A stretch of 64,000 nt of DNA from a virus (lineage: Duplodnaviria; Heunggongvirae; Uroviricota; Caudoviricetes). Below the pieces are notes generated by a model. It was not told where the DNA came from. It did no database searches and saw only the letters and a list, made by a program, of their open reading frames with translations. The translations under genes were made by a program, and so were the position numbers. Shown piece by piece: positions 995 to 23,036 of the stretch; positions within the stretch are counted from its first letter, which is position 1; each line of letters begins with the position of its first letter. The DNA lies in the IMG/VR virus record IMGVR_UViG_3300028833_002727; one strand, 5' to 3'.

Positions 995-1097
995 AACGTT
1001 TTAAATATACGTTTTTTTTTTGAATACACATCATTTTCAGCCTGTGCCATGTATTTATTGTATAATGAAATAATTAAGTAAAAAATATTATTAAAAC

Positions 1098-1445
1098 ATG
1101 AATCAATTTGTTGAAAATATACTGATTGGTGTACGTCAGTGGGTAAATGAAAAAATTGCTGACGTGAACGAAGCCATAAATGACAAACAAGACATGTTAA
1201 CTGCTGGTGAAAATATCGAAATTACTAGTGGCGGTACAATTAGTGCAACTGATACAACTTATGAGGCATCAGATTTCGACATTAAAGATTTAGCCGATTC
1301 TACTGGCTTACGTGAAGAGTGGAGCAGCAAACAAGACGCTTCTGATAACAATCTTAATACTACAGATAAAACATTGGTTGGTGCAATCAATGAATTACTT
1401 GCTAGAATAGAAGCATTGGAAACACAACTTAATAATCAAGCATGA
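1098..1445 (+). CDS. Virion fibre/appendage-like protein with a KQD.LTAG.NIEI module
   Basis: KQDMLTAGENIEITSGGTISA and LNTTDKTLVGAINEL motifs are typical of phage fibre proteins; TATTTAT motif at 1052. Confidence 0.6.
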   Translation: MNQFVENILIGVRQWVNEKIADVNEAINDKQDMLTAGENIEITSGGTISATDTTYEASDFDIKDLADSTGLREEWSSKQDASDNNLNTTDKTLVGAINELLARIEALETQLNNQA

Positions 1446-1620
1446 TAAATAACTAAACAAATTAAATTAAATTATGGAACAATTTATTCAAAACATGTTG
1501 ATTGGTATTCGCCAGTGGGTAAATGAAAAAATTGCTGGCGTTAATGAAGCCATAGACAACAAACAAGACATTTTAACCGCAGGTGATAACATTGAAATCA
1601 CTAGCGGTGGTACTATTAGT
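1098..1620 (+). repeat. Direct repeat (~145 bp) of the 5' ends of the two fibre-like genes (1098-1244 vs 1474-1620)
   Basis: Near-identical DNA (cagtgggtaaatgaaaaaattgctg...gaagccata...aaacaagacat) and protein. Confidence 0.85.
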
Positions 1621-2166
1621 GTAACTGGGATTATTAACGATTCTGTAGCAGGTAATAACTCTACGTATTCATCAAATAAAATTGATAATCTAATTAGCAT
1701 GATTGCTCAATTAAGTATCGAGGTTGTTGATGAATTACCTGCGAGTGGTAATACACACACCATCTATTTGGTTCCGGCACAAGAAAGTGGTGAAACAAAT
1801 TCAAGAGATGAGTATCTTTGGATTGTCGACGCTAGCACAGGAGTAGGTACTTGGGAACTAATTGGTACAACAAAAATTGATTTATCTAATTACTATACTG
1901 TAACTGAAGTTAATATGTTATTAGATGACAAACAAGACACTTTAACCGCTGGAGATAACATCGAAATCACTAGCGGGGGTACTAGCGGAATTACTATCAG
2001 TGCAACTGGAACTACAAGTGCTACTGAGCAGGCATTAGAAGATATGTCTTTTGTTATTTCAAGCCATATCAATGAATTAAACACTAAAGTTGATAGTAAA
2101 CAAGATGAAGTAAATGTAACTGTTGAAGAGGTGTTGGACGTATTAAATAGTTCTGACGATGAATAA
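1474..2166 (+). CDS. Virion fibre/appendage-like protein, paralogue of 1098..1445
   Basis: Two KQD.LTAGDNIEITSGGT modules, STYSSNKI, and VVDELP...IYLVP...DEYLW...WELIG...DLSNYYT fibre-type motifs. Confidence 0.65.
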   Translation: MEQFIQNMLIGIRQWVNEKIAGVNEAIDNKQDILTAGDNIEITSGGTISVTGIINDSVAGNNSTYSSNKIDNLISMIAQLSIEVVDELPASGNTHTIYLVPAQESGETNSRDEYLWIVDASTGVGTWELIGTTKIDLSNYYTVTEVNMLLDDKQDTLTAGDNIEITSGGTSGITISATGTTSATEQALEDMSFVISSHINELNTKVDSKQDEVNVTVEEVLDVLNSSDDE

Positions 2167-2197
2167 ATAACGCCAAGAAATAAAACACAAATAAACA

Positions 2198-3820
2198 ATG
2201 AAAGAATATATTAAAAAATTTGAATCTGCTACAAGTGCGGATAATTATTCAATTGTAGACATACCGTTTACTACTTCAATTGCACCAAGTTCTGATTATC
2301 CTTCGATAAACTATATTCAGAATTTGGTATGTAATCAAACAGGTAAAAAATTGGTTAATAATGATGGTATTGTTTCAATTTATAATGACGAGCCAGTTAT
2401 TCATAATGATGAAATTTGGTACACCAGTTCAGATGGAAATATTGTAACACCTAATGATTCATCCGTATTACCAGAAATTGATGCTAATACATATAGTGAT
2501 GGTAAAGGTGTAATTAAATTTAAAACAGATGTTACAAGAATTGGACGGAATGCTTTCGAAGATTGCAGCGGTTTGACTTCTGTGACGATTCCCAATAGCG
2601 TCACCAGCATTGGAGATGCAGCTTTCTCTGGTTGTAGCAGTTTAACTTCGGTTACTATTCCTAATAGCGTCACAAACATTGGGCCTGAGGCTTTCGCTGA
2701 TTGTAGAAGTTTAACTTCTGTGACGATTGGCAATAGCGTCACAAGCATCGGATGGGGTGCTTTCCAAAATTGCAGCGGTTTGACTTCTGTGACGATTCCC
2801 AATAGCTTCACCAGCATTGTAGATGCAGCTTTCTCTGGTTGTAGCAGTTTAACTTCGGTTACTATTCCCAATAGCGTCACCAGCATTGGAAGTCATGCTT
2901 TCGAGGGTTGCAGCGGTTTAACATCTGTTAAAATTCCTAACAGTGTCACCAGCATTGAAGATTGGGCTTTCGAGGGTTGTAGCAGTTTAACTTCTGTAAC
3001 GATTCCTAACAGTGTCACCAGCATCGGACATTGGGCTTTCGAATATTGCAGCAGTTTGACCTCTGTAACGATTGGCAATAGCGTCACAAGCATTGGAAGT
3101 GAGGCTTTCCGTAATTGCAAAGGTCTGACGAGCATCACCATTCCCAACAGCGTCACAAGCATTGGAGGAGGTGCTTTCGAGGGTTGCAGCGGTTTAACAT
3201 CTGTGACATGTGAAGCGACAACTCCACCAACATTAACTGGATATAATACATTTTATGAAACGAATAACTGTCCAATCTATGTACCATTCCGATCTGTTAT
3301 CGCATATAAATATGCTCAATATTGGTGGGAATATGCATCCAGAATTGTAGGCCAAGCTGGTATAGCACGAGTTACAATTGAGCGTGTAATCGGTACTTCG
3401 GAAACTATAACATTGTCTGATGGTGAAACCTATGCTGAACAAGGTTATAGTGGATACTATAGTCAAAGCTATTATGATTCTAGTATGGCAGAAACACCTG
3501 AACAGTTCTCAGTTAATGACAATTATCCTGTAGATGGTGAAACTATCTATGATTATTGTGATGATATTTATGAACCAACAGACGTAGAAGTTACAATTGA
3601 GCATGAAGATGGGACTTCAGAAACTATAACATTGTCTGATGGTGAAACCTATGCTGACCAAGGTTATAGTGGATACTATAGTCAAGATACATATGATTCT
3701 AATGTAGAAACTGCTGAAGATTACTTAGTTAATGACGATTATCCATATGACGGTCAGATTATCTATGATTATTGTAGTGATGATGCAGATCCAGAACCTG
3801 AAGATCCAGATGAACTTTAA
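2198..3820 (+). CDS. BspA-type (LRR_5/TpLRR) leucine-rich repeat protein with a duplicated acidic C-terminal module
   Basis: About ten 23-aa repeats LTSVTIPNSVTSIGxxAFxxCSx; N-terminal NDEIWYTSSDG...NTYSDGKGVIKF; C-cap ATTPPTL...IYVP..SV.AYK.A..W. Confidence 0.92.
   Translation: MKEYIKKFESATSADNYSIVDIPFTTSIAPSSDYPSINYIQNLVCNQTGKKLVNNDGIVSIYNDEPVIHNDEIWYTSSDGNIVTPNDSSVLPEIDANTYSDGKGVIKFKTDVTRIGRNAFEDCSGLTSVTIPNSVTSIGDAAFSGCSSLTSVTIPNSVTNIGPEAFADCRSLTSVTIGNSVTSIGWGAFQNCSGLTSVTIPNSFTSIVDAAFSGCSSLTSVTIPNSVTSIGSHAFEGCSGLTSVKIPNSVTSIEDWAFEGCSSLTSVTIPNSVTSIGHWAFEYCSSLTSVTIGNSVTSIGSEAFRNCKGLTSITIPNSVTSIGGGAFEGCSGLTSVTCEATTPPTLTGYNTFYETNNCPIYVPFRSVIAYKYAQYWWEYASRIVGQAGIARVTIERVIGTSETITLSDGETYAEQGYSGYYSQSYYDSSMAETPEQFSVNDNYPVDGETIYDYCDDIYEPTDVEVTIEHEDGTSETITLSDGETYADQGYSGYYSQDTYDSNVETAEDYLVNDDYPYDGQIIYDYCSDDADPEPEDPDEL
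2530..3210 (+). repeat. Tandem 69-bp LRR-coding repeats
   Basis: Recurrent ttaacttc(t/g)gt(g/t)ac(g/t)attcc(c/t)aa(t/c)ag(c/t)gtcac(c/a)agcattgg with 69-bp periodicity. Confidence 0.95.
3370..3783 (+). repeat. Tandem duplication of a ~70-aa module (VTIE...TSETITLSDGETYA.QGYSGYYSQ...YDYC.D)
   Basis: gaaactataacattgtctgatggtgaaacctatgctga is identical at 3401 and 3620. Confidence 0.95.
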
Positions 3821-3856
3821 AAAACTTGGGAAGAGATTATAAATGATGAATCTTAT

Positions 3857-4177
3857 GTGTTTGATGCAGGAACAATAGCAGTTGGACAAACTAAACCTGT
3901 TACTATTAATGGTAATGTTGCTAAATTCAGTTTTATACCAGAAAACAATGGTAATTATAGAATTTATTCAACTGGAGATGAAGACACTGTTGGCGCGATT
4001 TTTAATTCAAATGGTAATATGATTACATCCAATGATGATGGTTCAGGACATAATTTTATGATAAATACTGATTTAACTGGTGGCGAAACTTATTACATTC
4101 ATACAACACTTTATGGTTATGAAAATAGTGGCAATTTTAATTTAGTAGTTGAGGAAATGTATGATGATGAACCATAA
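3857..4177 (+). CDS. PPC-like beta-sandwich domain; in-frame continuation of the LRR gene past one TAA
   Basis: YRIYSTG..DT.G.IF...G..I..NDDGSG.NF.I...L..GETYY pattern; same frame as 2198..3820 and open from 3821. Confidence 0.6.
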   Translation: MFDAGTIAVGQTKPVTINGNVAKFSFIPENNGNYRIYSTGDEDTVGAIFNSNGNMITSNDDGSGHNFMINTDLTGGETYYIHTTLYGYENSGNFNLVVEEMYDDEP

Positions 4178-4271
4178 TATAGATGAACCAACAACATAAA
4201 TGATTTATGAAAACCCGCATTTTTACAGTAATAAATTATTTTTCCAAAATTCGTTTCCGCAAACGAATTAT

Positions 4272-4305
4272 AAAAAAATTCGCCTCGAAAAGCGAATTTT
4301 TTTTT
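4272..4305. terminator. Bidirectional intrinsic terminator
   Basis: A-run, aattcgc-ctcgaaaa-gcgaatt, T-run, between convergent genes. Confidence 0.8.
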
Positions 4306-4322
4306 ATCCTTAGAAACACAAG

Positions 4323-4757
4323 TTATATCTCTTGTTCTCTATTTAGTTCATTTTTAATTTGAGCAAACTTATTATATTGAAATTCTGAATATTTCTTTGC
4401 AATTTTTTCTGCAAATTTCTTATGCCCATCGTCTTTCAAAATATGCCCAGGATCACCATGTTGCGTAATTGCAAACAACAGTTTCAACAAGTATTTCTGT
4501 TCTTTGTTATCACACATGAACGTAACGTAATATTCTTTACTGTATTTCTCGTTACTAGTTGCGCCTTCAAATTTACTTATTGCTAAGGATGAGATGTATA
4601 TGTCTTCCTCATCCCACCCTGTTTCATTTTCTTTATCAAAGTCCAAACGAAAAAGTACACCTTTCCTGGGTGTAGTAAAATACTTCAATATCTGGTAGAT
4701 AGTTGTTTTCTCAATATCTCCGTAGGAAGTGTATTTTATAGTCATTCTACTCTGCAT
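4323..4757 (-). CDS. Hypothetical protein (likely start ATG 4757)
   Basis: ORF track 4323..4802; the first ATG after the upstream stop gives MQSRMTIKY. Confidence 0.55.
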   Translation of the reverse strand: MQSRMTIKYTSYGDIEKTTIYQILKYFTTPRKGVLFRLDFDKENETGWDEEDIYISSLAISKFEGATSNEKYSKEYYVTFMCDNKEQKYLLKLLFAITQHGDPGHILKDDGHKKFAEKIAKKYSEFQYNKFAQIKNELNREQEI

Positions 4758-7586: not shown

Positions 7587-8978
7587 ATGATACATTGGAA
7601 TGATTTTACACCAGGTGATTTTGATGGCGAGATAGAAGATAACAGCCAACAACTCATACAGCATTTATTGCCACCAGAGCAAAAACATAAAATAACAGAG
7701 CCATATAGACGTGCAAGAGGGGAAATACAAGGTAAAAAACTAGGAAATATGACACAAGCAGAGTGGAACAATATGAAATACGGATATATTGATGAAAATA
7801 GATTGATTAACGAGGCTGGTATTACGGAATTAGTAAATCTACCAAAAAAATATTTTGAATGTGTATCGAAATATTACAATAATGGTGAGTTAACAACAAG
7901 CAATGATAATTTTATACCAAGTACATGTCAACATTTAAACGAAATACTAAAATATGTATCAATAACAGGTGAAGACGTTAGTGATTTAACTTTGAGGGAG
8001 TTGTTTAAAAAATACGGTAAACTTATTGAAAGATATAAAACCGATAAACATGTGTTGAAAGAAAATATTGGGCATAATTTTGACGCTGCTGCTCGTACAC
8101 ACTACTCAATTAGCGGAGAAAAACTAGACAAATATTGTCATGTTATCGATGAAGTAATTGATGAGATGAGTAATAGTTTTAATACCAGCAAAGTATTAAC
8201 AAAGGAGTCATTAGATGAATTATGTAGTGATGTTGAAGTTAAGGATGTGATGACTTCATTTGACGTACAGAAACATTTGAATGAAAAATTCTGGGATGAG
8301 AATAATCATCTTAACTCTCGCGTTAGATTAAGACTGTTAGATATTGCTGATAAATTCTATGAAACGCTTGAAACTTCGTGGGTTGAGCCAATTGACGTTA
8401 TTTTTACTGGTAGCCTTTGCAATTACAATTGGAGTAAATATTCTGATGTAGATTTACATATTGTTGTGAATTTTGATGATGTTGATAAACGAACCAATTT
8501 CGTTAAAGACTATTTTGATACAAAGAAAAAAATTTGGAATAGCGAGCACGAGGAATTAACAATATATGGTTTCCCAGTTGAATTATATGTTCAAGACGTT
8601 AATGAAGAACACACAGCATCTGGTGTTTATTCATTATTCAAAAATGAATGGATTGTTGAGCCAAACCCAGATAATTTCAGCGCAGAAGATTTAGATAGAA
8701 AAACTATTGCAAGCAAAGTTATGAAATGCGCTGATAAAATTGATGAATTAGAAGCTGCGGCAGAGAATGAAACGGATCAGCACAAAGTAGAAATTATTGG
8801 CTTACAAGCAAAGAAATTGTTCACTAAAATTAAGAGTATCAGAAAGAACGCTTTGAAAAATGGTGGTGAATATGCACCAGGTAATATTTTCTTCAAAGCA
8901 TTAAAAAGGTGTGGTTATTTAAAAAAACTAATACAACTAAAGGCTAAAACATTTGATTCGTCGCACTCAATAAAATAA
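7587..8978 (+). CDS. Pol-beta superfamily nucleotidyltransferase-domain protein
   Basis: VIFTGSLCNYNWSKYSDVDLHIV (GS...DxD) and VELYVQD; N-terminal region rich in L/I-x-E sites. Confidence 0.8.
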   Translation: MIHWNDFTPGDFDGEIEDNSQQLIQHLLPPEQKHKITEPYRRARGEIQGKKLGNMTQAEWNNMKYGYIDENRLINEAGITELVNLPKKYFECVSKYYNNGELTTSNDNFIPSTCQHLNEILKYVSITGEDVSDLTLRELFKKYGKLIERYKTDKHVLKENIGHNFDAAARTHYSISGEKLDKYCHVIDEVIDEMSNSFNTSKVLTKESLDELCSDVEVKDVMTSFDVQKHLNEKFWDENNHLNSRVRLRLLDIADKFYETLETSWVEPIDVIFTGSLCNYNWSKYSDVDLHIVVNFDDVDKRTNFVKDYFDTKKKIWNSEHEELTIYGFPVELYVQDVNEEHTASGVYSLFKNEWIVEPNPDNFSAEDLDRKTIASKVMKCADKIDELEAAAENETDQHKVEIIGLQAKKLFTKIKSIRKNALKNGGEYAPGNIFFKALKRCGYLKKLIQLKAKTFDSSHSIK

Positions 8979-9083
8979 AATAAAATAACGAATAATTAAG
9001 TAAAAAAATTTATAAATCATACACTTTTTGAATTATATGGAGTATTTATAGAAAAATAATGTTTGAAAAAACAATCTTATAAT

Positions 9084-10703
9084 ATGGCAAATAGTAAAAT
9101 AGACAATCAAATGGAGAGAATGCAATTCCTCATGGAATACAAAACAACTCCAAAAGTTGACACTAAGGCTGGTATTGAATACACAATTAACACTGCTGAT
9201 GGTAAAACATATGGTATCATTCGTGAGAACAACATGTACTATATTAAAACAACAACTCCTGATAAAGCAAACATCAAGGAGTCTTACGAGTATATAGGTG
9301 GATATAACTATCGTAATGAGCATGGTTACAAGTCATTCAACGAGGCTACAAAACACCTTGAATTGGAACTTATGTGCATCAATGAGGCTATGGGTAAGCA
9401 CGAGGATGTTTCTGTTGTTTTGAATCCTAACAAAGGTAAAGAGGATATGAAAACGTTAACAGAGGCTGCTCGTACAGAGTTGGATAGAATGCACCAAATC
9501 TTTGAAAACTCATTCAAGAGTTCAGGTAAAGTAGGTTACAAAAACCCATTCAAAGACGCGGAAAGTAAGGGCACTGCAAGTGCTGAAAATACGGAGAAAA
9601 ACAACGCTCCTTTCGAAGATAAAGCAGAAGCGACTTTAGATAAAGATCCTAAATTTAACGGTACTGTTGATGGTGCTACACCAGACAACAAAAAAGTTGC
9701 TGATGGTACTGTAGATAGTGATTTACAATCTGATAAAATGAAAAGTGCCAATAGTGGTTCAGAAAAAGATTTCAAGGATACACACGACGATTTAGAGGGT
9801 GAAGGTGTTGCTGATAAAAAACCAAGTGGCGCTAAAGCCGTTAAAATGAACGAAGGTATTTTGGAAGAACCAATTGATGAACCTCATGAACCTTTGGCTG
9901 GTTTTGATGATGAGCCTGTTGGTGAACCAATTGATGAACCAACATTTACACCTGAAGATTTTGAAACTGGCGAAGAAACCACAGAAGAAACCCCAGAAGG
10001 CTTCATTAACGATTTCGATTTCGGAGAGGAAAGTAATATGTTAGAATCATTGTTAGAGGAATTTGCTGATGATTTAAACGTTGGTGATAGTGAACCCGCT
10101 CCAATTGCTGAAGAAGTTGAAAACGGTGGTGAAGATATTCTTAAAGGTGAAGGCGAAGGTGAAAAAGGTGGTAACAGTGTACATGGTGAGGAAACTATGG
10201 ATAAAATTGATGAGAACGCTGAAAACACTGAACCTGAAGGTGCTGGTGAAAAAGAAAGTAAAATCGTAGGCCCTGATGATGTAATGGATAGTGAAAAAGG
10301 CGCTGGTTCATTAGATGCTCAAAGTTGGAATAAATTACAAGAATCAATTGATAGAATTACTGACAGCATCTATGCTAGATTAAGCGAAGGTAAGAAAGTA
10401 AAGAGTGAAGAGAAAAGATTAGAGGAAAGATTACAAAAAGTTCTTGATAGAATTGTTGCTGAAGAAGTTCAGAAATTGGACGCATGGGGTAAACACCCAC
10501 GTTACCAAAAACCTGCTTTCGAAACTCCTGATAATAAAGAGGTAAGCGTAAATGGTTCTGAAGACTGGAACGACGACTCAACAAAGGGTTCAGAAGCATA
10601 TGGTAAGAAAGTTGGTAGTAGCGCTCCTTTTGATAAAACAGTTGACATGTTAACTGACGCGGTTGTAAACTACATCAAGGAGAATTACTTAAAAAAAAAG
10701 TAA
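9084..10703 (+). CDS. Acidic head-associated/scaffold-like protein (likely start ATG 9084)
   Basis: Glu/Asp-rich, many L/I/M-x-E sites, TATTTAT at 9043; ends at an A-AAA-AAG-TAA slippery site. Confidence 0.75.
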   Translation: MANSKIDNQMERMQFLMEYKTTPKVDTKAGIEYTINTADGKTYGIIRENNMYYIKTTTPDKANIKESYEYIGGYNYRNEHGYKSFNEATKHLELELMCINEAMGKHEDVSVVLNPNKGKEDMKTLTEAARTELDRMHQIFENSFKSSGKVGYKNPFKDAESKGTASAENTEKNNAPFEDKAEATLDKDPKFNGTVDGATPDNKKVADGTVDSDLQSDKMKSANSGSEKDFKDTHDDLEGEGVADKKPSGAKAVKMNEGILEEPIDEPHEPLAGFDDEPVGEPIDEPTFTPEDFETGEETTEETPEGFINDFDFGEESNMLESLLEEFADDLNVGDSEPAPIAEEVENGGEDILKGEGEGEKGGNSVHGEETMDKIDENAENTEPEGAGEKESKIVGPDDVMDSEKGAGSLDAQSWNKLQESIDRITDSIYARLSEGKKVKSEEKRLEERLQKVLDRIVAEEVQKLDAWGKHPRYQKPAFETPDNKEVSVNGSEDWNDDSTKGSEAYGKKVGSSAPFDKTVDMLTDAVVNYIKENYLKKK

Positions 10704-11305
10704 ATGAGGGTAGAACCTTATTGAAAGTTGGAAATGGACAGCCACAAGGTGGCGGAATGGATGCAATGTCACGACCACCTATGGATGCCGCTCCAATGCC
10801 ACAAGACGATATGATGGGCGGTGGAGCACCAATGGATAACAGTATGCCACCTGTTGGAGGCTCAGATGCTGGTGGTGCAATGCCACCAATGGACAATGGA
10901 CAAAGCGAGTTTGATACGAACTTTGACGCTGGCGTAGAGGCTGACGAGGATACTGATCCAGAAAAATACATCCAACAATTAACTGGTAAATTATCAACCA
11001 CATTAAACTCATTCAATAGTGAAAATGGTGATAATAGTGGATTAAACAAGTATGTTGCAAAAATGATTATTAAAGCGGCAACTAAGAATATGGATGATGC
11101 ATCTAAAAAAGAGATAATCAAAGCAATCAATACTTCTGAAAACCCAGAACCAACAGAAGAACCTGAAGGTGAACCAATGAATGATATGGGTAACGATGCT
11201 CCAGATATGCAGGGACAAGATATGCAAGGTATGGAGACACCAATGCAAGAAAGAGTAATTTCTAAAAAACAACTAGCAGAAATGGCTAAACGCCGTAAAA
11301 AATAG
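10700..11305 (+). CDS. Met/Pro/Gly-rich ORF in the -1 frame; probable frameshift extension of 9084..10703
   Basis: The -1 frame is open from the A9G run: KKK-VNEGRTLLKVGNGQ...; conserved-looking core FDAGVEADEDTDPEKYIQQLTGKLS. Confidence 0.75.
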   Translation, partial: VNEGRTLLKVGNGQPQGGGMDAMSRPPMDAAPMPQDDMMGGGAPMDNSMPPVGGSDAGGAMPPMDNGQSEFDTNFDAGVEADEDTDPEKYIQQLTGKLSTTLNSFNSENGDNSGLNKYVAKMIIKAATKNMDDASKKEIIKAINTSENPEPTEEPEGEPMNDMGNDAPDMQGQDMQGMETPMQERVISKKQLAEMAKRRKK

Positions 11306-11324: not shown

Positions 11325-11362
11325 AAAAAAATGGCGATAGTTGCGAAACTATTGCCATTTTT
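11325..11362 (+). terminator. Intrinsic terminator
   Basis: aaaaatggcgatagtt-gcga-aactattgccattttt. Confidence 0.85.
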
Positions 11363-12923: not shown

Positions 12924-15900
12924 ATGGAAAAATTAAATAATATTACAATATCTGAAATCATAGCGCACTCACCAAACCGAGGCGTTTTTAAATTTAAAGA
13001 TCGTGAAACTGACTTATATTGGGGCAATCAACTTATGTTACCAGTAAATCAAACAAAAACGGCGTTATGTGCAATAGCTAAAAATGAAAATCGGTATATC
13101 CGTGAATGGATAGAACATTACAAGAATCTTGGAATAAAACACATATATCTTTATGACAACAATGAACTCGACGGTGAGCACTTTGAAGATGTAATTGGTG
13201 ACTATATCGATTCTGATTTTATAACTGTAATTGATGTGCGAGGTGTTCAAAAAGGTTTAGTATATGATAAAAATGGACTTAATTTACAGCCAAGATGTTA
13301 TAAAGAATGTTACGAAAAATACGGATATTCATATGACTATATGTGTTTTTTTGATATTGACGAGTTTCTAGAATTAAAAAATGGAATAACACTATCAGAT
13401 TATCTTACAAGTGAAAAAATAAAAGCATATGATACTATCCTTGTACCATGGGAAATTTATGACGATAACGGACAAATATTTTATGAAAACAGGCCTGTTC
13501 AAGAGAGGTTTACCACTGTTTCTACTATTAACAAATCACACCCGGTTAAATCAATATTGAAGACGTGTAAAAAATTATATAGTAACATAAGTGTAGATAA
13601 ATCACATTTTATGCTCACTAACGGACTGTCTGTTTGTTGGTCAGATGGAACGCTAGGCCCTGATTTTACAAAACATACATGGTATAGTATGCCAGAAGAA
13701 AATTTTAAAAAGTCAGTTATTAAACTAAAACACTATAGAACGAAAAGTTTTGAAGAATTTTATATTCGCCACTATAACGAATATTGGGGAACCAAGTGCG
13801 GTAATTTTAATAGTACTTCACAGAAATATTTTTGTGTTGATGATATAATTGAAAATTATTACCATGACAACGAAAGAAACAAAGAAAAAGATACTAACAT
13901 AAATAGTTTTTTACAAACAAAAAAAGGAAACGAAACTAATGATGTAACGTTTATAATACCCAATCGAGGGGGAGAACATGTTAATTATGTAATTAAAAAT
14001 TTTACCAACACATTTAAAAAATATTTTAACAAAATTAATTTCATTGTAATCAATCAAGTAGATGAAACAAGTTTTAAACGTGGACAATTATTTAATATTG
14101 CTTTTAGATATGTCAATACAAAATGGTTAGGCTTGATTGATAACGATATAGTAAATTTAAATAGTTTTAACCCTATAAAAAAATATGAGGAAAATGGATG
14201 CCCAATTGCTTGTTTCGATCATATTTCACAAGTTCATTTAGAAAACAATAAGACTATTGTTGACAGCACTAGAAAAAGTATTACTGGTTTTGGTGCTTTT
14301 AATTTTATGAAAAAGGAGGATTTTGGACACATTAATGGTTTCAGTAATTTAACCTTTGGCTGGGGAGCAGAAGACAACATATTTGCAGAAAAACTTCAGA
14401 TGGTAAGAATATCAAACACAATCGGGCATATCAGTCACCAACCAAGATATAACATAAATCCTATACTTTTATGCCTTAACAGAGATGTGAGACAAAAATA
14501 TAGAGACAAAAAAATGAACTATAAACTTGATGGAATGGTACAAACTACTTATGATATTGCAAAAATTAATCAAACAAATAATGTACTGTTTCTCGATGTT
14601 ACAAATATAGGCGTTCCAGATAATTTTAAATATAAAGAAATATTTTTAGAATTGAAAAAATATGAGGACTGTACAAATACAGCCATTCCAGGAATTAGTA
14701 TTTGTGTAACGGCATACAAAGCTGAAAAATACATAAAAGAAACACTTGATTCCATATATAGGCAAACATGGTTTAAAAATCATGATAACTGGGAAATAAT
14801 TATAGGTGTTGACGATTGTAAAGATACGTTGCAATATCTTCAGTTAATAAGACATGATTATGATGAACATTTACGCATATTTATGATGAGTTCTAACAAG
14901 GGTACATACGTAACAACAAATACAATTATGTGCTTAGCCAAATATGATGCTTTATTTAGATTCGATTCTGATGATATTATGTTGCCACAGTGTATAGAAA
15001 CTGTAATGAACAATCTAACAGATGTTGATTTTTTGCGTTTTAATATGGAAAATTTTACTGATTTTAAATCTGATATTAATCATAAACAAGTACAAATAAC
15101 ATTTGGGGTGCATGTAATTAAAAAAAATATATTCTTAAAATACGGTGGTTACAAACCTTGGCCTTGTTCAGCTGACACAGAAATAATTGAACGTTTGAAA
15201 AATGTAGCGAATTTTAAAATATTAACTGATGTTTTATTAAAAAGGCGCATACATAACGATAGCCTAACTCATAAGCCTGGCCCTAACCAACTGTATGGTG
15301 GAATAGGTTCAGAACGACAGAAATATTTGAATTACTGTTATAATATGAATGTGACGTCTGAAAAAGACGCAACCATTATATGTGTTACAAATACATTTAC
15401 GGAAATAGACAAAAACTATGAAATTAATGATTTTTGTACAAACAGTTATTCTAATTTGATTGTGACATTAACATCATGGAAAAAACGCATCATGAATATA
15501 CCAACTGTTTTGAGTACTGTATTAAATCAAACAAAGTCTATTAACAAAATAGTACTAAATTTATCAGTAGAAGAATTCCCAAATAAAGACAATGATTTGC
15601 CTGAAAATGTTTTAAAATTTATAAAAACACATAATATTATAGAAATCAACTGGATTAATGGAAAAAACACAAAACAATGGAAGAAAATTATACCAACCAT
15701 GCAGAAATATCCAAACGATTGGATAATATGTATTGATGATGATAAACTATATCCGAAAGAATTCATTGAAACACTTTGGAGTACTCATCTATTATATCCT
15801 AATAATCCAATTACATTGAATAAAACATATAAAATACATGGATGTTTGCAACATTCAGGTGTGGGTACTTTAGAATGCGCTAAATTTTATAACAATTTCG

Positions 15901-16277
15901 AAAATGTAGACATTGAATATATACAAAATAATACGGAGTCAAGTGATACGGTTTTTACATACCTGTTAAACCGAAATGGATATGAATTAAAACCTATATC
16001 TAGCCAATTGTTATTAACTTCTTATAATGAAATTGATCCATTGTCTGAAAAATTACACACTTGCAATGCGATAACACACAACACAACATGGGACTTGTTA
16101 TCACATAGATATGGGCAAATAAATACACAAGAATATTTATCAAATAAAAGGGTTAATGTGTGCCATTCCACAATAGCACAGCCTGAATTATCAAAAAAAC
16201 GTGTAAATATAGATTTGTATAATCAACATACCATGAACATCAAAAATAAACTAAAAAGAAAAACATTAAATATTTAA
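12924..16277 (+). CDS. Four-domain glycosyltransferase (GT92/GT2-like + GT7-like + GT2 + GT2-like)
   Basis: CAIAKNENRYIREWIEHY...FFDIDEF; FKRGQLFNI...INGFSNLTFGWGAED; ISICVTAYKAEKYIKETLDSI...RFDSDD; LIVTLTSWKKRI...CIDDD. Confidence 0.9.
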   Translation: MEKLNNITISEIIAHSPNRGVFKFKDRETDLYWGNQLMLPVNQTKTALCAIAKNENRYIREWIEHYKNLGIKHIYLYDNNELDGEHFEDVIGDYIDSDFITVIDVRGVQKGLVYDKNGLNLQPRCYKECYEKYGYSYDYMCFFDIDEFLELKNGITLSDYLTSEKIKAYDTILVPWEIYDDNGQIFYENRPVQERFTTVSTINKSHPVKSILKTCKKLYSNISVDKSHFMLTNGLSVCWSDGTLGPDFTKHTWYSMPEENFKKSVIKLKHYRTKSFEEFYIRHYNEYWGTKCGNFNSTSQKYFCVDDIIENYYHDNERNKEKDTNINSFLQTKKGNETNDVTFIIPNRGGEHVNYVIKNFTNTFKKYFNKINFIVINQVDETSFKRGQLFNIAFRYVNTKWLGLIDNDIVNLNSFNPIKKYEENGCPIACFDHISQVHLENNKTIVDSTRKSITGFGAFNFMKKEDFGHINGFSNLTFGWGAEDNIFAEKLQMVRISNTIGHISHQPRYNINPILLCLNRDVRQKYRDKKMNYKLDGMVQTTYDIAKINQTNNVLFLDVTNIGVPDNFKYKEIFLELKKYEDCTNTAIPGISICVTAYKAEKYIKETLDSIYRQTWFKNHDNWEIIIGVDDCKDTLQYLQLIRHDYDEHLRIFMMSSNKGTYVTTNTIMCLAKYDALFRFDSDDIMLPQCIETVMNNLTDVDFLRFNMENFTDFKSDINHKQVQITFGVHVIKKNIFLKYGGYKPWPCSADTEIIERLKNVANFKILTDVLLKRRIHNDSLTHKPGPNQLYGGIGSERQKYLNYCYNMNVTSEKDATIICVTNTFTEIDKNYEINDFCTNSYSNLIVTLTSWKKRIMNIPTVLSTVLNQTKSINKIVLNLSVEEFPNKDNDLPENVLKFIKTHNIIEINWINGKNTKQWKKIIPTMQKYPNDWIICIDDDKLYPKEFIETLWSTHLLYPNNPITLNKTYKIHGCLQHSGVGTLECAKFYNNFENVDIEYIQNNTESSDTVFTYLLNRNGYELKPISSQLLLTSYNEIDPLSEKLHTCNAITHNTTWDLLSHRYGQINTQEYLSNKRVNVCHSTIAQPELSKKRVNIDLYNQHTMNIKNKLKRKTLNI

Positions 16278-16286
16278 CCATTAGTT

Positions 16287-16781
16287 ATGACACCGTGTAC
16301 TGGAAATAAAGATGCGATGGTAAGAGCTGGAGCTAGACTTGGAAAAAATGTTTCAATTATTGGTGATGTACATTATTCTAGCGAGCCATATCTTATCAAA
16401 ATTGGAGATAATACAACAATATCATTTGAATGTGCATTTATAACACATGACGCAGCAACTCGCGTTATTCGTAATTTACCAGATGGAAATAAAGAAACGG
16501 TTATTTATGGAACGATAGAAGTTGGTAAAAATTGTTTCATTGGATGTAGGACAACAGTATTACCAAATGTAAAAATCGGTGATAATACTATCATTGGTGC
16601 ATGTAGTTTGGTATGCTCAGACATACCTTCTGGCGTTGTAGCGGCTGGAAATCCATGTAAAGTAATATGTACATTGGATGAGTACAGGGAAAAACATAAA
16701 GACGATTTTTTATATATGGTTTCATTACCACCAGATAAGAAGAAAACATATTTAATGAAACATTTTAAGATAAATGGATAA
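16287..16781 (+). CDS. Left-handed beta-helix (hexapeptide) sugar O-acetyltransferase
   Basis: EPYLIKIGDN...FITHD...IEVGKNCFIG...VLPNVKIGDNTIIGACSLV..DIP..VVAAGNPCKVI. Confidence 0.92.
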   Translation: MTPCTGNKDAMVRAGARLGKNVSIIGDVHYSSEPYLIKIGDNTTISFECAFITHDAATRVIRNLPDGNKETVIYGTIEVGKNCFIGCRTTVLPNVKIGDNTIIGACSLVCSDIPSGVVAAGNPCKVICTLDEYREKHKDDFLYMVSLPPDKKKTYLMKHFKING

Positions 16782-19530
16782 GAACAATTTTAACATACTA
16801 ATAGTACATTATAATACACCAAAGTTAACCGAGTGTTTAGTTAAAAGTATCAACAAATTTGTTGGTACCGATTGTACTATATACATATTTGATAATAGCG
16901 ACAAAAAACCATTCACATATAAACAAAGTAATTTAACGATTTTGGATAATACACATGGCGAAATAATCAATTTCGACAAATGGTTAGAAAAATATCCACA
17001 GCGTTTTCAGACAAAGGCTAAAATGAACAACTTTGGTAGTGCAAAACACGCATATACAATTGAAAAATGTTTTGATTTAATCCCGGGTAATTTTGTTTTA
17101 ATGGATTCTGATATTCTATTGAAACAAGACATATCAAAATTTGTTAATGACAACTATGTTTCTTGTGGTGAAATATTCAAAACAACAGTAGTAAAATCAC
17201 GTGTTTTACCATTCATTTGTTATATCAATGTTGAATTATGTAAAAAATACGGTATACACTTTTTCGACGAAAAAAGAATGAATGGTTTATATACTGGTAA
17301 ATATCCTGAGTCGTATGATACAGGTGCATCTTTCCTTGAAGATATAACAAATACAAAAGCACCATTTTTAAATATTAAATTAGATTCTTATATCGAACAT
17401 TTTAAGGCCGGAAGTTGGCTTAGTGAATCTAATGCATTACATAAAGCAAAAAGAACAGAGGAAGAATGGCTTGAGACAAACAAAAAATACTATTTCAATT
17501 CTGACATTGTTGTATCTCTTACAACGCATGGCGAACGTGTTAAATATATTCAACCAACACTAGAATCATTATTGAAACAGACAATTAAACCATACAAAAT
17601 TATAGTTGCATTGTCAGATGCTGATTATGCAAAAATTCCAAGTAATATCATTTCGTTTATGAACGAACATAAAATTGAAACAATTACTTGTGAAAAAGAT
17701 TTAGGCCCACATACAAAATACTATTTTGCAATGCAAAAATATAGGAACAATCCTATTGTAACTGTTGATGACGATATTGCGTATGATAATAATCTATTGG
17801 AATTATTATTAAAAGGTTACAATAAATTTCCAAACTGTGTAAGTGCAAATAGGGTTCACAAAATTAGATACAACACAGATGGCACGCCAATTGATTATAT
17901 GAAGTGGCAAATTCAATACAAAGATGAATATATGAAACCTTCATTTGATTTATTTGCTACTGGTGTTGGTGGTGTGTTATATCCGCCAAACATATTGGAT
18001 ATTGATGGCGTGCTCATAAAAGATATTGATAAAAGTTTCTTTGCTGATGATGTTTATTTGAAGTGGAGAGAAAACGAGTTGGGTGTACAAGTTGTTTATA
18101 CTGGTAATGGTAAATCATTAAACGGTAAAGAAGTTTCAAACGCAACCGTTAAATCGACTGGTTTAGCATTGGTGAACAATTTGAAAAACCGTAATGATGC
18201 TTATATTGAACAACTTGGTTTACGCAAGACAATTGTAAAAAATAAACGCGTTATCTATACATGTATTACCGGTAACTATGAAGCATTAGTACCTCTTACA
18301 AATCGTCAAAGTGATTTTGATTATGTATGTTTTACTGACAACAGTGGATTAACATCAGATTTCTGGGAGTTGCGCCCAGTTCCACAAGAACTATTAAAAT
18401 TGTCATGTGTTAAACAGCAAAGAATGATAAAAATTTGCCCGCATAGATATTTACCAGATTATGATGAATCAATATGGATTGATGGAGCAGTAGATGTGCT
18501 TTCTGATCCAAATAAATTCATTGAAAAATTCTGTTCTGATAGTAATAAATCAGTGTTTATTCGTAAGCACCCAAATAGAAACTGTATCTATACAGAGGGG
18601 CTGACATGTATAAAACTGAGAAAAGATAAAGCGGCAATTGTAAATCCACAGTTAGATAAATACAGAAAAGAGAATTTCCCTAGAAATTTTGGTTTGGCGG
18701 AAACTAATATTATATATAGGAAACACAAAAACCCATATTGTGTTAAACTAATGGATTTATGGGCTATTGAACTGTTGAATGGTTCACATAGGGATCAGTT
18801 ATCATTCAATTATGCATTATGGAAAGTCGGAAGTGATGGATTTAAATACTTATATATGCGTTTGACACATAACCCATATTTCAAATGGTATACATCGCAT
18901 AACAGAGGAAGGGTTGCCGCCGCTTCATCTAAAAAAAAAAAATTACAACAGTCGACAGTACCAAAATGCAACACTTCATTTGGGGTTAAAAAGGACGAAA
19001 ATAAGAAAACCGTCCAGGTAAAAAAACACGTTCCAGAACAGAAAAAAGTAAAAGTTTCAGCACAAAGACATACGATTGGGCCTAAAGAAATATCACAAAC
19101 TGTTGATAAACCGAAAAAAATCGAAATTAAAACTAAACCTGTTGTAAAAAAACAAGTGCAACATGAAAAGGCTATTGTATCAAAACCAGTTGTGCGTGCT
19201 AATCCAATTGTATTCAAAAAACCAACAGAATTGGTAATGAGTGGTTTGGGTAGTAAATATGTTCCATTAACAAAACCTATTGAAGCACCTAAACCAGTTG
19301 AGAAACCTAAGTCAGTTGCAATAAAAACAACACAGCCGCAAAACAAAAAGAACAAACCAGTTAATGTTATAGTGCCAAAGAATGAGAATGTGAATGAGAT
19401 TAAAAAAACACAGGTTATTTTAAAACAAGGTACGCGCGTGTTGTCAAGAAGAGTTGATAATATTTCTGGAAAGAAAATGGAAAGAGTTAATAAACGAAAT
19501 AGTAGCAGTAGAAGTGGTTTTTTCAGATAA
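16774..19530 (+). CDS. Three-domain glycosyltransferase (GT2-like + GT2-like + DUF616-like) with a Lys/Pro-rich tail
   Basis: IVHYNTP...LMDSD; IVVSLTTHGER...TVDDD...TGVGGVLYPP; VIYTCITGNYE...IWIDG...RDQLSFNY. Confidence 0.88.
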   Translation: MDKNNFNILIVHYNTPKLTECLVKSINKFVGTDCTIYIFDNSDKKPFTYKQSNLTILDNTHGEIINFDKWLEKYPQRFQTKAKMNNFGSAKHAYTIEKCFDLIPGNFVLMDSDILLKQDISKFVNDNYVSCGEIFKTTVVKSRVLPFICYINVELCKKYGIHFFDEKRMNGLYTGKYPESYDTGASFLEDITNTKAPFLNIKLDSYIEHFKAGSWLSESNALHKAKRTEEEWLETNKKYYFNSDIVVSLTTHGERVKYIQPTLESLLKQTIKPYKIIVALSDADYAKIPSNIISFMNEHKIETITCEKDLGPHTKYYFAMQKYRNNPIVTVDDDIAYDNNLLELLLKGYNKFPNCVSANRVHKIRYNTDGTPIDYMKWQIQYKDEYMKPSFDLFATGVGGVLYPPNILDIDGVLIKDIDKSFFADDVYLKWRENELGVQVVYTGNGKSLNGKEVSNATVKSTGLALVNNLKNRNDAYIEQLGLRKTIVKNKRVIYTCITGNYEALVPLTNRQSDFDYVCFTDNSGLTSDFWELRPVPQELLKLSCVKQQRMIKICPHRYLPDYDESIWIDGAVDVLSDPNKFIEKFCSDSNKSVFIRKHPNRNCIYTEGLTCIKLRKDKAAIVNPQLDKYRKENFPRNFGLAETNIIYRKHKNPYCVKLMDLWAIELLNGSHRDQLSFNYALWKVGSDGFKYLYMRLTHNPYFKWYTSHNRGRVAAASSKKKKLQQSTVPKCNTSFGVKKDENKKTVQVKKHVPEQKKVKVSAQRHTIGPKEISQTVDKPKKIEIKTKPVVKKQVQHEKAIVSKPVVRANPIVFKKPTELVMSGLGSKYVPLTKPIEAPKPVEKPKSVAIKTTQPQNKKNKPVNVIVPKNENVNEIKKTQVILKQGTRVLSRRVDNISGKKMERVNKRNSSSRSGFFR

Positions 19531-19564: not shown

Positions 19565-20287
19565 ATGGATAGTAAAAAACAAATAGTAGAAATAAAAAAA
19601 GGGAACGTCGGTTCTGGCTTATTATTAGAAAATGACGGATATATGTCATTGGATATGCCAGAAAACAAAATGCTGAAAGAATCAGTTGAGGCATTCCAGG
19701 GTGGTATGGCACATGAGTTGCCACGTCCTTTTGTTGTTTCTGCCGTATTCCAAAAATACGGTATTCAAAACGCTAACGGACGTATATATCCAGAAAAGAT
19801 ATTGAAAAGAGAAGTTGAGAAATATCAACAGGCAATTAAAGAAAGACGCGCTTTCGGTTGTTTAAATCACCCGGATTCAAGTGATTTGGATTTGGAAAGA
19901 ATATGTCTTTTAATTACTGAACTTCATTGGGTAGGGCATACATTGGTTGGTAAAATGGAAATTCCTATTACTGAAGGTTTCCGCAGAGATGGTATTTGTT
20001 CTAATCTTGCGGATACTTTAGCACAATGGTTAATTAGTGGCTTGCGTGTTGGTGTATCAAGTAGAGCATTAGGCGGCGTACAGCAAATCGGCGGTACATT
20101 GGTTGTTGATGATACCCTTGAACTAATTTGTTGGGATGCTGTTGGACAACCATCAACTCCAGGTGCATACATTGATACAAACGACGATGCTTTAACACCA
20201 TTCATTGAATCAAAAGAAGCACCTGATGGTAAACAGGTTATTAAAGAGGACAAATTTAGTAAATTCGATGGGTGGTTAAACGATTAA
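19565..20287 (+). CDS. gp21: Prohead core protease (T4 gp21-like)
   Basis: NANGRIYP, G.LNHP (catalytic His), VGVSSRALG (catalytic Ser), WDAVGQPSTPGA. Confidence 0.95.
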   Translation: MDSKKQIVEIKKGNVGSGLLLENDGYMSLDMPENKMLKESVEAFQGGMAHELPRPFVVSAVFQKYGIQNANGRIYPEKILKREVEKYQQAIKERRAFGCLNHPDSSDLDLERICLLITELHWVGHTLVGKMEIPITEGFRRDGICSNLADTLAQWLISGLRVGVSSRALGGVQQIGGTLVVDDTLELICWDAVGQPSTPGAYIDTNDDALTPFIESKEAPDGKQVIKEDKFSKFDGWLND

Positions 20288-21254: not shown

Positions 21255-23036
21255 ATGAACAAAGGTTTTGAAATAAATGGTACTATGGATTTAGGACACA
21301 TGAGTCCATTAGAACAACAAGAAAATGTTATGGAAAAGAAGATAAATGAACAAACGTTAAGACAAATAGTTCGTGAAAGTTTAAAAGAACTATCTAACCA
21401 AACAATTGGTAGTTATATGCGTGCAACAAAAAACCAAAGAAGGGATAGACAATATGATGCAGGCAAATGGCACGCGATAAAAACTGTTAACGACAAATAT
21501 AGTTTTTGTGTCACATTGGATCTTGGCGAGGAAGTATTATTCACCTTGGGTATGGACAATGAGGAATTCTTCATTCTTGTTGATGTAGATGAACATATGG
21601 AAAATAAAGAACCATATACTTTGAAGTTAATGCCTAACAATCCAAGACGTATGTTAGATGGTACTCCAATAACTGAAACAACGGTTGGGTATGTTATTGA
21701 TAACCTACGCGCAGGTGAAAGGATGAAACTTAAAGGCTTATGCCAATCCGCTATAGAATTGAATCAAGCATTAAGAGGTAAACAAGCACAAATTGCTGAA
21801 TCTGTTAAAGAGAAAGCGGTAAGTAAATCACAACAACGTTTTTTCGGCATGGTTGATGCATATAAAAAAGGTGAGTTGGATAATCCTTCAAAATCTGTTA
21901 AAGATGCAGCTGATGGTATGTCAATGAAACAGGTAAAAGATTTTGCGAAAACAAAACACAAAGGTTTACCAAACCATGTAGATGAATCTGTCCTTCGTAG
22001 TATAATTAGAGAAACATTAGAACAAACATGGGCTGACAGAGAACCAAAAGATAAAATGGATAACATACGTCTTCAACGTTACCAGGGGTTAGTTGAAATC
22101 GTTGAATACTATCTAAATCAATGCGAAGCTGGAAATGGTGTTGAATTGTCTGATAAACAACGTGAGCAACTTGAAGATGCTTGTAATAAACTATGTGTGT
22201 TTGGTGAAATTGGTGAAAAGTGGGCAAATCTTGGCAGAAGTATTTTGAGTGGAGATGAAGATGTTGCAGAAGAGAAACCATTTACTGATGAAAATGTTTA
22301 CACAATGGATGACTGGAGGCGTGATGGTTCACTCAAAGTACAGATAGGGCAGTTAATAGCACCTGAAGTATATTGGCAATTAAGAGATAGTGTACCGCCA
22401 ATGTCAGACGGAGGTTGTTTCCAACCTGGTGAAGCATACGACCATGACTGGAGAACTGGAAAAGCACTTTATCAAACATTCACGCGCGAGGGCGATAATT
22501 ATTATAGATACAAAGGATTACAGCCAGCAAGTAGGTGGGGATTAGAAGAAAGTGAATTAAAAAAAACAATAAGAGAAACAGTACAAATGCATTTAGTAAA
22601 CGTACTTGGTAAATATACACAAGGAAAAACATCAAGCAAAGAGGCAAACAAGGCTATCATGGATTTAGCAAATAGTTCAAATAAAAAAAAAGTGAATGAA
22701 GATGTTGATGCTCGTACTGCCGCATATTTCGACAAAATTAGAAATGGAGAATATGAGACTTTAGAGTTTGAAGGAAAAATATTTAGTGTCCCTCCACAGT
22801 TAAAACAAATAGCACAGAAAACTGCCGACAAATTTGGGGTTAGGGTATCAACATATGTAGGAGAAGACGAAAGAAAACTTTATTATGGCTTATTAGTTGA
22901 TGTTCCAGAAAATTGTGTTTTTCCAACATTATCCAATAACATTAGGTTATTTTTATTAGATTATGATATACATTATATAGGTTGGTACAAGAGAGGCATC
23001 TTTTTTTACCAGCAAATAATGAAAAAACCATACTAA
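21255..23036 (+). CDS. Modular protein with three leader motifs and a DUF3008-like module
   Basis: INEQTLRQIVRESLKE, VDESVLRSIIRETLE, LEESELKKTIRETV; KAVSKSQQRFFGMV..YKKGE...VKDFAKTKHKGLP. Confidence 0.8.
   Translation: MNKGFEINGTMDLGHMSPLEQQENVMEKKINEQTLRQIVRESLKELSNQTIGSYMRATKNQRRDRQYDAGKWHAIKTVNDKYSFCVTLDLGEEVLFTLGMDNEEFFILVDVDEHMENKEPYTLKLMPNNPRRMLDGTPITETTVGYVIDNLRAGERMKLKGLCQSAIELNQALRGKQAQIAESVKEKAVSKSQQRFFGMVDAYKKGELDNPSKSVKDAADGMSMKQVKDFAKTKHKGLPNHVDESVLRSIIRETLEQTWADREPKDKMDNIRLQRYQGLVEIVEYYLNQCEAGNGVELSDKQREQLEDACNKLCVFGEIGEKWANLGRSILSGDEDVAEEKPFTDENVYTMDDWRRDGSLKVQIGQLIAPEVYWQLRDSVPPMSDGGCFQPGEAYDHDWRTGKALYQTFTREGDNYYRYKGLQPASRWGLEESELKKTIRETVQMHLVNVLGKYTQGKTSSKEANKAIMDLANSSNKKKVNEDVDARTAAYFDKIRNGEYETLEFEGKIFSVPPQLKQIAQKTADKFGVRVSTYVGEDERKLYYGLLVDVPENCVFPTLSNNIRLFLLDYDIHYIGWYKRGIFFYQQIMKKPY

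Follow-up and report, generated by a model that had tools for sequence, protein, structure and literature searches.

The heptamer A_AAA_AAG is the slippery site of E. coli dnaX, where it is read by tRNA-Lys and allows one gene to yield two products, tau and gamma, at a set ratio. The dnaX shift leads to the shorter product and needs an upstream Shine-Dalgarno (SD) sequence together with a downstream stem-loop. In Thermus thermophilus, dnaX products with a common N-terminus arise by transcriptional slippage on a run of nine. Among phage structural genes, T7 gene 10A/10B and the major head protein of Lactobacillus phage A2 (the latter cited in PMC10885494) undergo a -1 shift near the end of the head gene. 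The shift adds a C-terminal extension to a minority of the major capsid protein (MCP) itself, and the added part remains fixed to the shell. The lambda-type G/GT shift is a widely conserved -1 event in a structural module of dsDNA phages. Flanked by the major tail and tape-measure genes, it serves tail assembly; its position and register outlast sequence divergence, and some lineages swap the shift for other gene arrangements. In retroviral and totiviral Gag-Pol, an abundant interior protein is extended by a -1 shift, and the added domain is co-packaged at fixed stoichiometry (PMC5009743) and freed by the particle's protease. Prohead proteins such as T4 IPIII (CTS) and SPN3US gp47 and gp53 carry an N-terminal segment that targets the prohead core; gp21-type proteases cut after Glu and remove such targeting propeptides (PMC9026906, PMC7411985). 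Our literature searches, which were not exhaustive, found no report of a frameshift in a gene for a prohead-core or internal protein, either in T4-like or in jumbo phages.

We analyzed a 64,000-nucleotide stretch of an uncultured tailed phage (IMG/VR record IMGVR_UViG_3300028833_002727), referred to here as the window, and its 118.7-kb contig. The open reading frame at 9063/9084..10703 (ORF1) runs into an A-rich sequence directly before its stop codon, and a second long frame (ORF2) continues from that point. The elements of the junction are as follows.

9084..10703, plus strand: ORF1, zero-frame product of 539 aa plus stop; relatives with a complete ORF1 have a homologous N-terminal domain upstream of the junction
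10691..10699, plus strand: A9 homopolymer run, read from the sequence
10694..10700, plus strand: slippery heptamer A_AAA_AAG in the X_XXY_YYZ phase of ORF1; 68 of 74 informative distinct relatives have an orthologous site in phase
10701..10703, plus strand: zero-frame stop TAA immediately 3' of the heptamer, read from the sequence
10700..11305, plus strand: -1 frame extension (ORF2), 201 codons plus stop, supported by the open frame and protein conservation

An initial annotation of this DNA had proposed a probable programmed -1 frameshift here, and its description of the letters was borne out. In the frame of ORF1, positions 10689-10703 read TTA AAA AAA AAG TAA, with A-AAA-AAG before the stop. 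The -1 frame, described as about 200 codons with no ATG before 10757, is open from 10658 to 11305; its 201 post-shift codons occupy 10700-11302, with a TTG at 10721 and no in-frame ATG until 10757. After the shift the reading is K-K-K-V-N-E-G-R-T-L-L-K-V-G, and the transframe ORF1-ORF2 product is expected to have about 740 aa. At the base composition of the contig, about 7.5% of random codons are stops, and an open frame of 200 codons is therefore unexpected by chance. The junction peptide KKKVNE, said to be shared with another protein of the phage, is indeed encoded in frame in the 21255..23036 protein (DNA A9G, at 22683-22691) and nowhere else in the 118.7-kb contig. Among all A-runs of at least 8 bases in the contig, only the A9 at 10691-10699 has one long ORF ending just past it and a second long ORF carrying on in a different frame.

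At least 231 IMG/VR relatives, on contigs of up to 380 kb, carry this locus, and the ORF2 frame is conserved as protein in more than 200 other phage contigs. We compared 103 IMG/VR loci, representing 76 distinct ORF2-domain sequences (61 clusters at 90% identity and 24 at 70%), of which 74 were informative. An exact -1 shift at the same junction is required in 68 of the 74, and a +1 shift in none. Most junctions use A-runs of A7, A9, A10, A11 or A12, with the -1 register kept in all three phases; 63 of 64 distinct A-run junctions have at least nine bases. Four distinct sequences have a non-homopolymer heptamer, A_AAT_TTT or G_GGT_TTT, mostly right before TAA: CT[A AAT TTT] TAA in L055/56/58/60/61, TT[A AAT TTT] CAA in L107 and TT[G GGT TTT] TAA in L027. 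All orthologous heptamers (A_AAA_AAA/G, A_AAT_TTT and G_GGT_TTT) are in phase with the upstream ORF, and the zero-frame stop of the relatives falls 4-18 nt past the run. Conservation of the site, which the initial annotation had raised as a check, thus extends over five run lengths and two non-homopolymer heptamers. A single continuous ORF, which would have spoken for an assembly artifact, is not the general state of the homologues and is seen in only a few.

We propose that most ribosomes on ORF1 would end at the TAA and release the 539-residue protein, and that some would move back by one base at A_AAA_AAG as the two tRNA-Lys re-pair with AAA AAA. The slipped ribosomes would read on in the -1 frame to produce an ORF1-KKK-VNE-ORF2 protein of some 740 residues, and the slip frequency would set the ratio of the short and long forms. 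Judged from sequence comparison, we consider it likely that ORF1 is made in two forms by such a programmed -1 ribosomal frameshift; the conserved register, the heptamer variants and the missing start codons all argue for it.

The same fusion could be made by standard translation if RNA polymerase added one A on the A9 run in some mRNAs. Bacterial RNA polymerase slips efficiently on runs of nine A or T, examples being Thermus dnaX and IS elements (PMC5009743). Nearly all A-run junctions are 9-12 bases long, beyond what a heptamer needs, and no conserved ribosomal stimulator was found. However, the A_AAT_TTT, G_GGT_TTT and A7 junctions cannot slip in transcription, yet they have the same -1 register and junction peptide. 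Both A7 junctions (L024 and L108) lie exactly in the phase demanded by ribosomal slippage, and at A_AAT_TTT and G_GGT_TTT only tandem tRNA slippage can serve. Since orthologues of the site function without a long homopolymer, the run is not the defining element, in contrast to Thermus dnaX. Tolerance of in-frame A12 (18931-18942) and A9 (22683-22691) runs in long genes of the phage also speaks against polymerase slippage, although it counts against ribosomal slipping as well. We favor ribosomal -1 frameshifting and regard programmed transcriptional slippage as an unlikely source of the fusion; polymerase slippage on the A9 run may perhaps contribute to the same long product.

We also inspected the sequences around the site for signals that could promote or delimit the shift.

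10677..10682, plus strand: AAGGAG, 11 nt 5' of the heptamer, with dnaX-like spacing; read from the sequence, not conserved
10703..10722, plus strand: weak 7-bp hairpin starting 2 nt past the heptamer, from folding; absent in the closest relatives L024 and L025
11327..11362, plus strand: terminator-like hairpin followed by a T-rich tract (z = -5.05), closing the ORF1-ORF2 unit

The window thus resembles dnaX in its heptamer and in the placement of AAGGAG. It differs in that the shift gives the longer product, a stop follows the heptamer directly and the stimulator is not conserved. Among the compared relatives, only the window has AAGGAG at -11. A search across the relatives for a conserved stimulator, either a 3' fold or an upstream SD-like element, found none; folds downstream of the junction are mildly stable (mean z -1.1), with the hairpin at variable distance. 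The adjacent stop codon is the sole recurrent feature near the slip sites. SD sequences precede 7 of the 92 genes of the phage and its real gene starts are A/T-rich, and translation of the host type seems to be SD-independent. No tRNA genes were found in the contig; to the extent that this fragment shows, no phage tRNA-Lys takes part.

Independent initiation of ORF2, with the slippery sequence incidental, would make the locus two separate genes. Gene callers place an ORF2 start at TTG 10721 (Atlas record), AAGGTGG lies 4 nt upstream of ATG 10757, and a sigma-70-like match is found at 10642-10671. Against this, SD sequences are not used by this phage and its promoter-like matches are no more numerous than in shuffled sequences. 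Protein-level conservation of the ORF2 frame begins at the slip site, ahead of any start codon: V-N-E-G-R-T-L-L-K-V-G, which precedes both candidate starts, is conserved as protein and shows synonymous changes relative to L024. Across the family the peptide just past the shift is [L/I/V]-x-E followed by an RKVLKV-like sequence. Of 64 distinct A-run junctions, 62 have an [LIVMA]-x-E motif no more than 12 residues past the run, and the Glu three residues past the shift is invariant in 36 aligned sequences that include fused and stand-alone forms. Only one of the 64 has an ATG, GTG or TTG of the ORF2 frame inside the run or ahead of it; the other 63 have no start able to make the junction peptide, and nine of the 64 lack an ATG before the conserved domain. 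An independent ORF2 start, one of the two results that the initial annotation had named as refuting its proposal, is thus lacking for the junction peptide at almost all of these sites.

The exceptions in the family serve as natural controls. Three relatives (L005, L036 and L039) have the C-terminal module of ORF1 joined to ORF2 in frame, and in L005 the fusion gene adjoins a separate full ORF1 homologue that retains its own copy of the module. Stand-alone ORF2 genes, which do exist as the two-gene reading supposes, are found in L026 and L104 and are present in two of the window's closer relatives. They begin with their own leader of about 20 residues ending in L-x-E, and this leader is absent from the window. 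Because the -1 register and junction peptide are conserved, suitable starts are lacking and these controls exist, both independent initiation and sequencing error are very unlikely. We consider two separate genes improbable. Still less probable is a homopolymer error in the metagenome assembly hiding a true A10 and one ordinary 740-residue gene: a single extra A would merge the frames and some relatives have in-frame A11 junctions (L083, L085 and L094) or the in-frame fusions, but the -1 offset is found across many samples in 68 distinct sequences, including heptamers that are not error-prone, is shared by the nearest relatives L024 (A7) and L025 (A9), and has no +1 counterpart, whereas independent errors should give +1 and -1 alike.

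We next considered what the two forms might be. Starting with an N-terminal helix or leader and a small beta/alpha domain, ORF1 continues through about 270 acidic, disordered residues to its C-terminal helices, which contain a 'GKHP...SSAPF' module. Its AlphaFold model (pLDDT 51) was too uncertain for a structure search, and its homology was obtained only through ORF2-anchored loci; ORF1 alone, as a single-protein locus query, recovered no relative. The AlphaFold model of ORF2 is a three-helix domain, and a Foldseek search against viral models returned an uncharacterized homologue as its sole match. Neither protein matched a family in Pfam, PHROGs or PDB profile searches, DNA and protein searches with the locus and with ORF2 gave no match among GenBank phages, and the ESM Atlas returned only 'hypothetical protein' clusters of viruses. 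The initial annotation called ORF1 'scaffold-like'; the protein proved to be largely disordered and acidic, with no family match to support that label. Its assignment as a head protein is plausible from its place in the late structural block and from cleavage-type motifs.

10922..11134, plus strand: three-helix domain conserved in the extension (FD.GV.A.E..DP..YIQQL.GKL...), residues ~75-145 of ORF2, from conservation and a model pLDDT of ~89
10700..10708, plus strand: junction tripeptide V-N-E, predicted target of a gp21-type prohead protease and presumably cleaved; all 36 aligned relatives keep the Glu
19565..20287, plus strand: prohead serine protease of the T4 gp21 type (Peptidase_S77), presumed to act on the junction site, from profile matches

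The late structural block holds the Peptidase_S77 protease (19565-20284; Peptidase_S77 match 6.2e-20, phrog_207 match 4.2e-32), a Gp23 homologue as MCP (24792-26672), the portal and the terminase together. The MCP search gave only distant relatives at about 40% identity, from huge uncultured phages and Flavobacterium phage immuto. MAG matches named several unrelated phyla, and the host is not identified by them. The ORF1-ORF2 unit is flanked by a nucleotidyltransferase-like gene (7587-8978) and glycosyltransferase genes (12924-19530). With such neighbors and no tape-measure gene, we rejected a tail assembly chaperone on gene context. The unit accordingly differs from G/GT in lying in a late block with head genes, although both are widely conserved -1 shifts in which register survives sequence divergence and some lineages use other arrangements. 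It differs from the T7 and A2 cases in that the shifted gene is not the MCP, ORF1 is largely disordered and the junction carries a protease-type site.

The phage encodes a gp21-type protease and the junction creates V-N-E, which suggests delivery followed by release in the manner of Gag-Pol. ORF1 would be a component of the prohead interior, the fusion would bring the three-helix domain of ORF2 into the assembling head, and the protease would cut after the Glu of V-N-E to free ORF2. The cleavage idea agrees with the strong conservation of [LIVMA]-x-E right after the shift. There is no homology to Gag-Pol, the window is from a DNA phage with a T4-type protease, and the likeness lies in the proposed logic of packaging and cleavage. 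The leaders of the stand-alone ORF2 forms resemble the propeptides of T4 and SPN3US; in the window, by contrast, the 'leader' would be the whole 539-residue protein, supplied by frameshifting. To our knowledge, T4 and phiKZ-like phages offer no described example of a whole-protein leader of this kind. We suggest only tentatively, as a reading somewhat short of probable, that the frameshift doses this delivery, with abundant ORF1 taking the three-helix cargo into the prohead and the protease freeing it at the L/V-x-E created by the shift. The cleavable-leader and duplicated-module forms would then be evolutionary equivalents, and the C-terminal helix of ORF1 would be the true targeting element.

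The ORF1-ORF2 arrangement is kept in about 90% of related phage contigs and very probably reflects a real programmed frameshift in a late gene of uncultured jumbo phages. Gene callers report the locus as two 'hypothetical proteins' unrelated to each other, so that no annotation of this large jumbo phage group contains the long form; a corrected gene model would affect at least 231 IMG/VR contigs. The site adds a conserved family of recoding sites in phage structural genes to the tail-chaperone and capsid cases, and, if the delivery reading is true, the structural modules of tailed phages would have a second widely conserved frameshift family besides the tail chaperone G/GT. Among the relatives, naturally interchangeable slippery sequences (A7 to A12, A_AAT_TTT and G_GGT_TTT) stand beside non-frameshift equivalents, a set on which the tuning of frameshift efficiency could be studied in hosts without SD use. 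If delivery and cleavage occur as proposed, ORF1 would also offer a module that targets proteins for loading into the large heads of phages.

ORF1, the upstream zero-frame gene, starts at ATG 9084 (or TTG 9063) and ends at 10703 with the codons TTA AAA AAA AAG TAA. The sequence reads there as follows.

10691-10699, + strand: run of nine A (A9)
10694-10700, + strand: heptamer A_AAA_AAG in ORF1 phase, with the stop immediately after it

The -1 frame is free of stops from 10658 to 11305, and a slip at the heptamer gives K-K-K-V-N-E-G-R-T-L-L-K-V-G... and 201 codons (ORF2). The earliest ATG in this frame lies at 10757, and there is a TTG at 10721. The initial annotation had described this in-phase heptamer with its adjacent stop and an extension of about 200 codons lacking an ATG before 10757, and bases 10689-10703 and the reading frame agree on both points. 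Across the contig, only 10691-10699 among A- or T-runs of at least 8 has a long ORF ending just past the run while another long frame continues. The junction peptide KKKVNE does, as had been noticed, have one other in-frame copy in the contig: an A9+G run at 22683-22691, within the 21255..23036 protein, encodes the peptide that frameshifting makes at 10691-10708. Its presence at both places suggests a linker or cleavage motif that can be reused, and motifs of this kind may give rise to slippery sites. Separately, an in-frame A12 run (KKKK) at 18931-18942 lies within the 918-residue glycosyltransferase gene 16774..19530; ribosomal or transcriptional slippage there would truncate the protein. 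Either this is tolerated, or the run is a further dosing site.

Searching IMG/VR with ORF2 recovered 22 loci, and a second, alignment-based search yielded 231 relatives; the 80 best were retained, and 6 further loci came from mis-binned MAG contigs. Many of the relatives lie on contigs of 215-380 kb. With the window counted there are 103 viral loci, whose ORF2 domains come in 76 distinct sequences (61 clusters at 90% identity, 24 at 70%). The junction of each locus was classified by script; contig ends cut two sequences, leaving 74 that were informative.

Junction classes among the 74 informative distinct sequences
-1 shift at A10: 41
-1 shift at A9: 16
-1 shift at A11: 5
-1 shift at A12: 1
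-1 shift at A7: 1
-1 shift at A_AAT_TTT: 3
-1 shift at G_GGT_TTT: 1
in-frame fusion: 5
stand-alone ORF2 gene: 1

The slippery site and its stop are conserved among the relatives: a -1 shift is required in 68 of the 74 sequences and a +1 shift in none, and the zero-frame stop lies 4-18 nt past the run without exception. Relative to the upstream frame, the A-run itself may start on the first, second or third base of a codon. Non-homopolymer heptamers occupy the same position as the A-runs, mostly immediately 5' of TAA (CTA AAT TTT TAA in loci L055, L056, L058, L060 and L061; TTG GGT TTT TAA in L027). The MAG loci supplied a further A_AAT_TTT (L107), an A7 preceded by G_GGT_TTT (L108), and A9, A10 and A11 sites; both A7 sites are in the exact phase required by tandem slippage. 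In the group with ORF1 ending ...ALKKK (L006-L023 and similar), the frameshift extension measures 400-730 residues and consists of a string of modules; one of them is DUF3008-like and in the window sits instead in the separate 21255..23036 protein. At L018:3320-4972, about 180 residues are inserted past the slip site, and the post-junction motif (x-I-x-E, then T-H-S-D-G-M-S-T-G-L-F) recurs after the insert.

The long form could possibly be made by RNA polymerase slipping at the A-run, which would give a protein product identical to that of ribosomal slippage. Almost all junction A-runs are at least nine long, and in bacteria slippage is efficient on runs of nine (PMC5009743). However, orthologous sites with A_AAT_TTT, G_GGT_TTT or an in-phase A7 can work only on the ribosome. 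The favoured shared mechanism is therefore a -1 shift by the ribosome, with a possible transcriptional contribution in the A9-A12 lineages, including the window.

Independent initiation of ORF2, which the initial annotation had considered, is very unlikely. Of 64 distinct A-run junctions, only 1 offers the ORF2 frame a start codon (ATG, GTG or TTG) anywhere up to the end of the run, and the junction peptide is conserved: an alignment of 36 sequences (A2) has [L/I/V]-x-E, its Glu invariant, and then an RKVLKV-like stretch immediately past the shift, common to frameshift, fused and stand-alone forms. [LIVMA]-x-E falls at most 12 residues past the run in 62 of the 64 junctions. In 9 of the 64, no ATG lies ahead of the conserved domain. 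The post-junction stretch of L024, the window's nearest relative, differs from that of the window by synonymous changes. AAGGTGG does precede ATG 10757, but it is not a credible start signal in a phage whose genes dispense with Shine-Dalgarno sequences; across the whole contig an SD-like 4-mer is found in 7 of 92 genes, versus 10% at random positions. Gene-start leaders there are A/T-rich, and such starts fit a Bacteroidota-type host. A sigma-70-like match (TTGACA, 18 nt, TAAACT) lies just 5' of the slip site at 10642-10671, and such matches in the region are no more numerous than in shuffles. A homopolymer sequencing error mimicking the shift is also very unlikely, given that the -1 register recurs in many samples, with A-runs of different lengths and with heptamers not prone to such errors, and that homologues do not generally form the single continuous ORF expected of one. 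The -1 arrangement in the sequence is confirmed, and the conserved register and junction peptide support its reading as programmed frameshifting.

The exceptional loci act as natural controls. In L005 (355-kb contig; positions 1000-4489 of the locus), an 854-residue ORF1 homologue ends in a 'GKHP...SSAPY' module and a stop, and the gene after it joins another copy of the module in frame to ORF2. At the level of the gene, this duplication stands in for the frameshift, and the same module-ORF2 gene is found in L036 and L039. L083, L085 and L094 carry ORF1-ORF2 in frame across an A11 run. ORF2 stands alone in L026 (2944-3669) and L104 (2944-3678). There it begins with a separate leader of some 20 residues, which ends L-R-E or L-L-E and is followed by NRKV[IL]K; in L104 the ORF2 start and the ORF1 stop overlap as TAATG. 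These leaders bear a faint likeness to the last ORF1 helix (V-x-D-x-x-T-x-V). From the fused, module-ORF2 and leader forms, it appears that ORF2 is never made without a segment N-terminal to the L-x-E site, and in most lineages only ORF1 could be that segment.

No conserved stimulator was found among the 68 distinct junctions, for which the 70 nt downstream have a mean fold z of -1.1 and hairpin distance varies. The window has a 7-bp hairpin beginning 2 nt past the heptamer, absent from its nearest relatives L024 and L025, and AAGGAG 11 nt upstream, in the window only. The sole recurrent feature is the nearby zero-frame stop. Sublineages have hairpins (GTGAAC...GTTCAC and CAGCCGG...CCGGCTG, up to -33 kcal/mol) about 26 nt past the run in L028, L029 and L032-L034 and about 30 nt in L043, L047 and L048, farther out than classical stimulators and without covariation.

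The source is a 118.7-kb IMG/VR contig (G+C 33%) with a CheckV completeness estimate of 34%, and therefore from a jumbo phage; this fragment has no tRNA genes. ORF1 neighbours a nucleotidyltransferase-like gene and large glycosyltransferase genes. Other features are these.

11327-11362, 3' of ORF2: strong terminator-like hairpin (z = -5)
19565-20284, same strand as ORF1: T4 gp21-type prohead protease (Peptidase_S77 6e-20; phrog_207 4e-32)
24792-26669, same strand as ORF1: Gp23-type major capsid protein
34054-36081, same strand as ORF1: portal
opposite strand to ORF1: T4-type large terminase

Because the hairpin follows ORF2, a single transcription unit appears to end with ORF1 and ORF2.

Neither ORF matched Pfam, PHROG or PDB families, and ORF2 had no homologue among GenBank phages. 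ORF1 is one family, with an N-terminal leader-like helix and small domain common to both groups of relatives and a variable middle and C-terminus. Its structural model, of low confidence throughout, places about 270 disordered acidic residues and C-terminal helices after these elements. The AlphaFold model of ORF2 has a disordered Met/Pro/Gly-rich start, a three-helix domain (75-145, pLDDT ~89), an acidic tail and a basic C-terminal helix. The ORF1 N-terminus conserved in both groups (window 9084-9180; …RMQ.LM.Y…NE) ends hydrophobic-N-E and could itself be a leader that is cleaved from ORF1.

The type of event is classical; as a frameshift of a putative prohead-interior gene it was not found in the literature searched, whose incomplete coverage held no such report for T4-like or jumbo phages. 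T4-type proteases recognise short motifs, in which they cleave after Glu, and they strip N-terminal targeting peptides; in giant phages, propeptides of 110-130 residues serve that targeting purpose (PMC9026906, PMC7411985). Within the fusion, ORF1 would carry ORF2 into the prohead, where the prohead protease would then separate them; the carry-then-cut principle that we infer here is that of Gag-Pol (PMC5009743). This single proposed model of prohead delivery fits the protease gene, the motif at the junction and the short-leader stand-alone forms alike.
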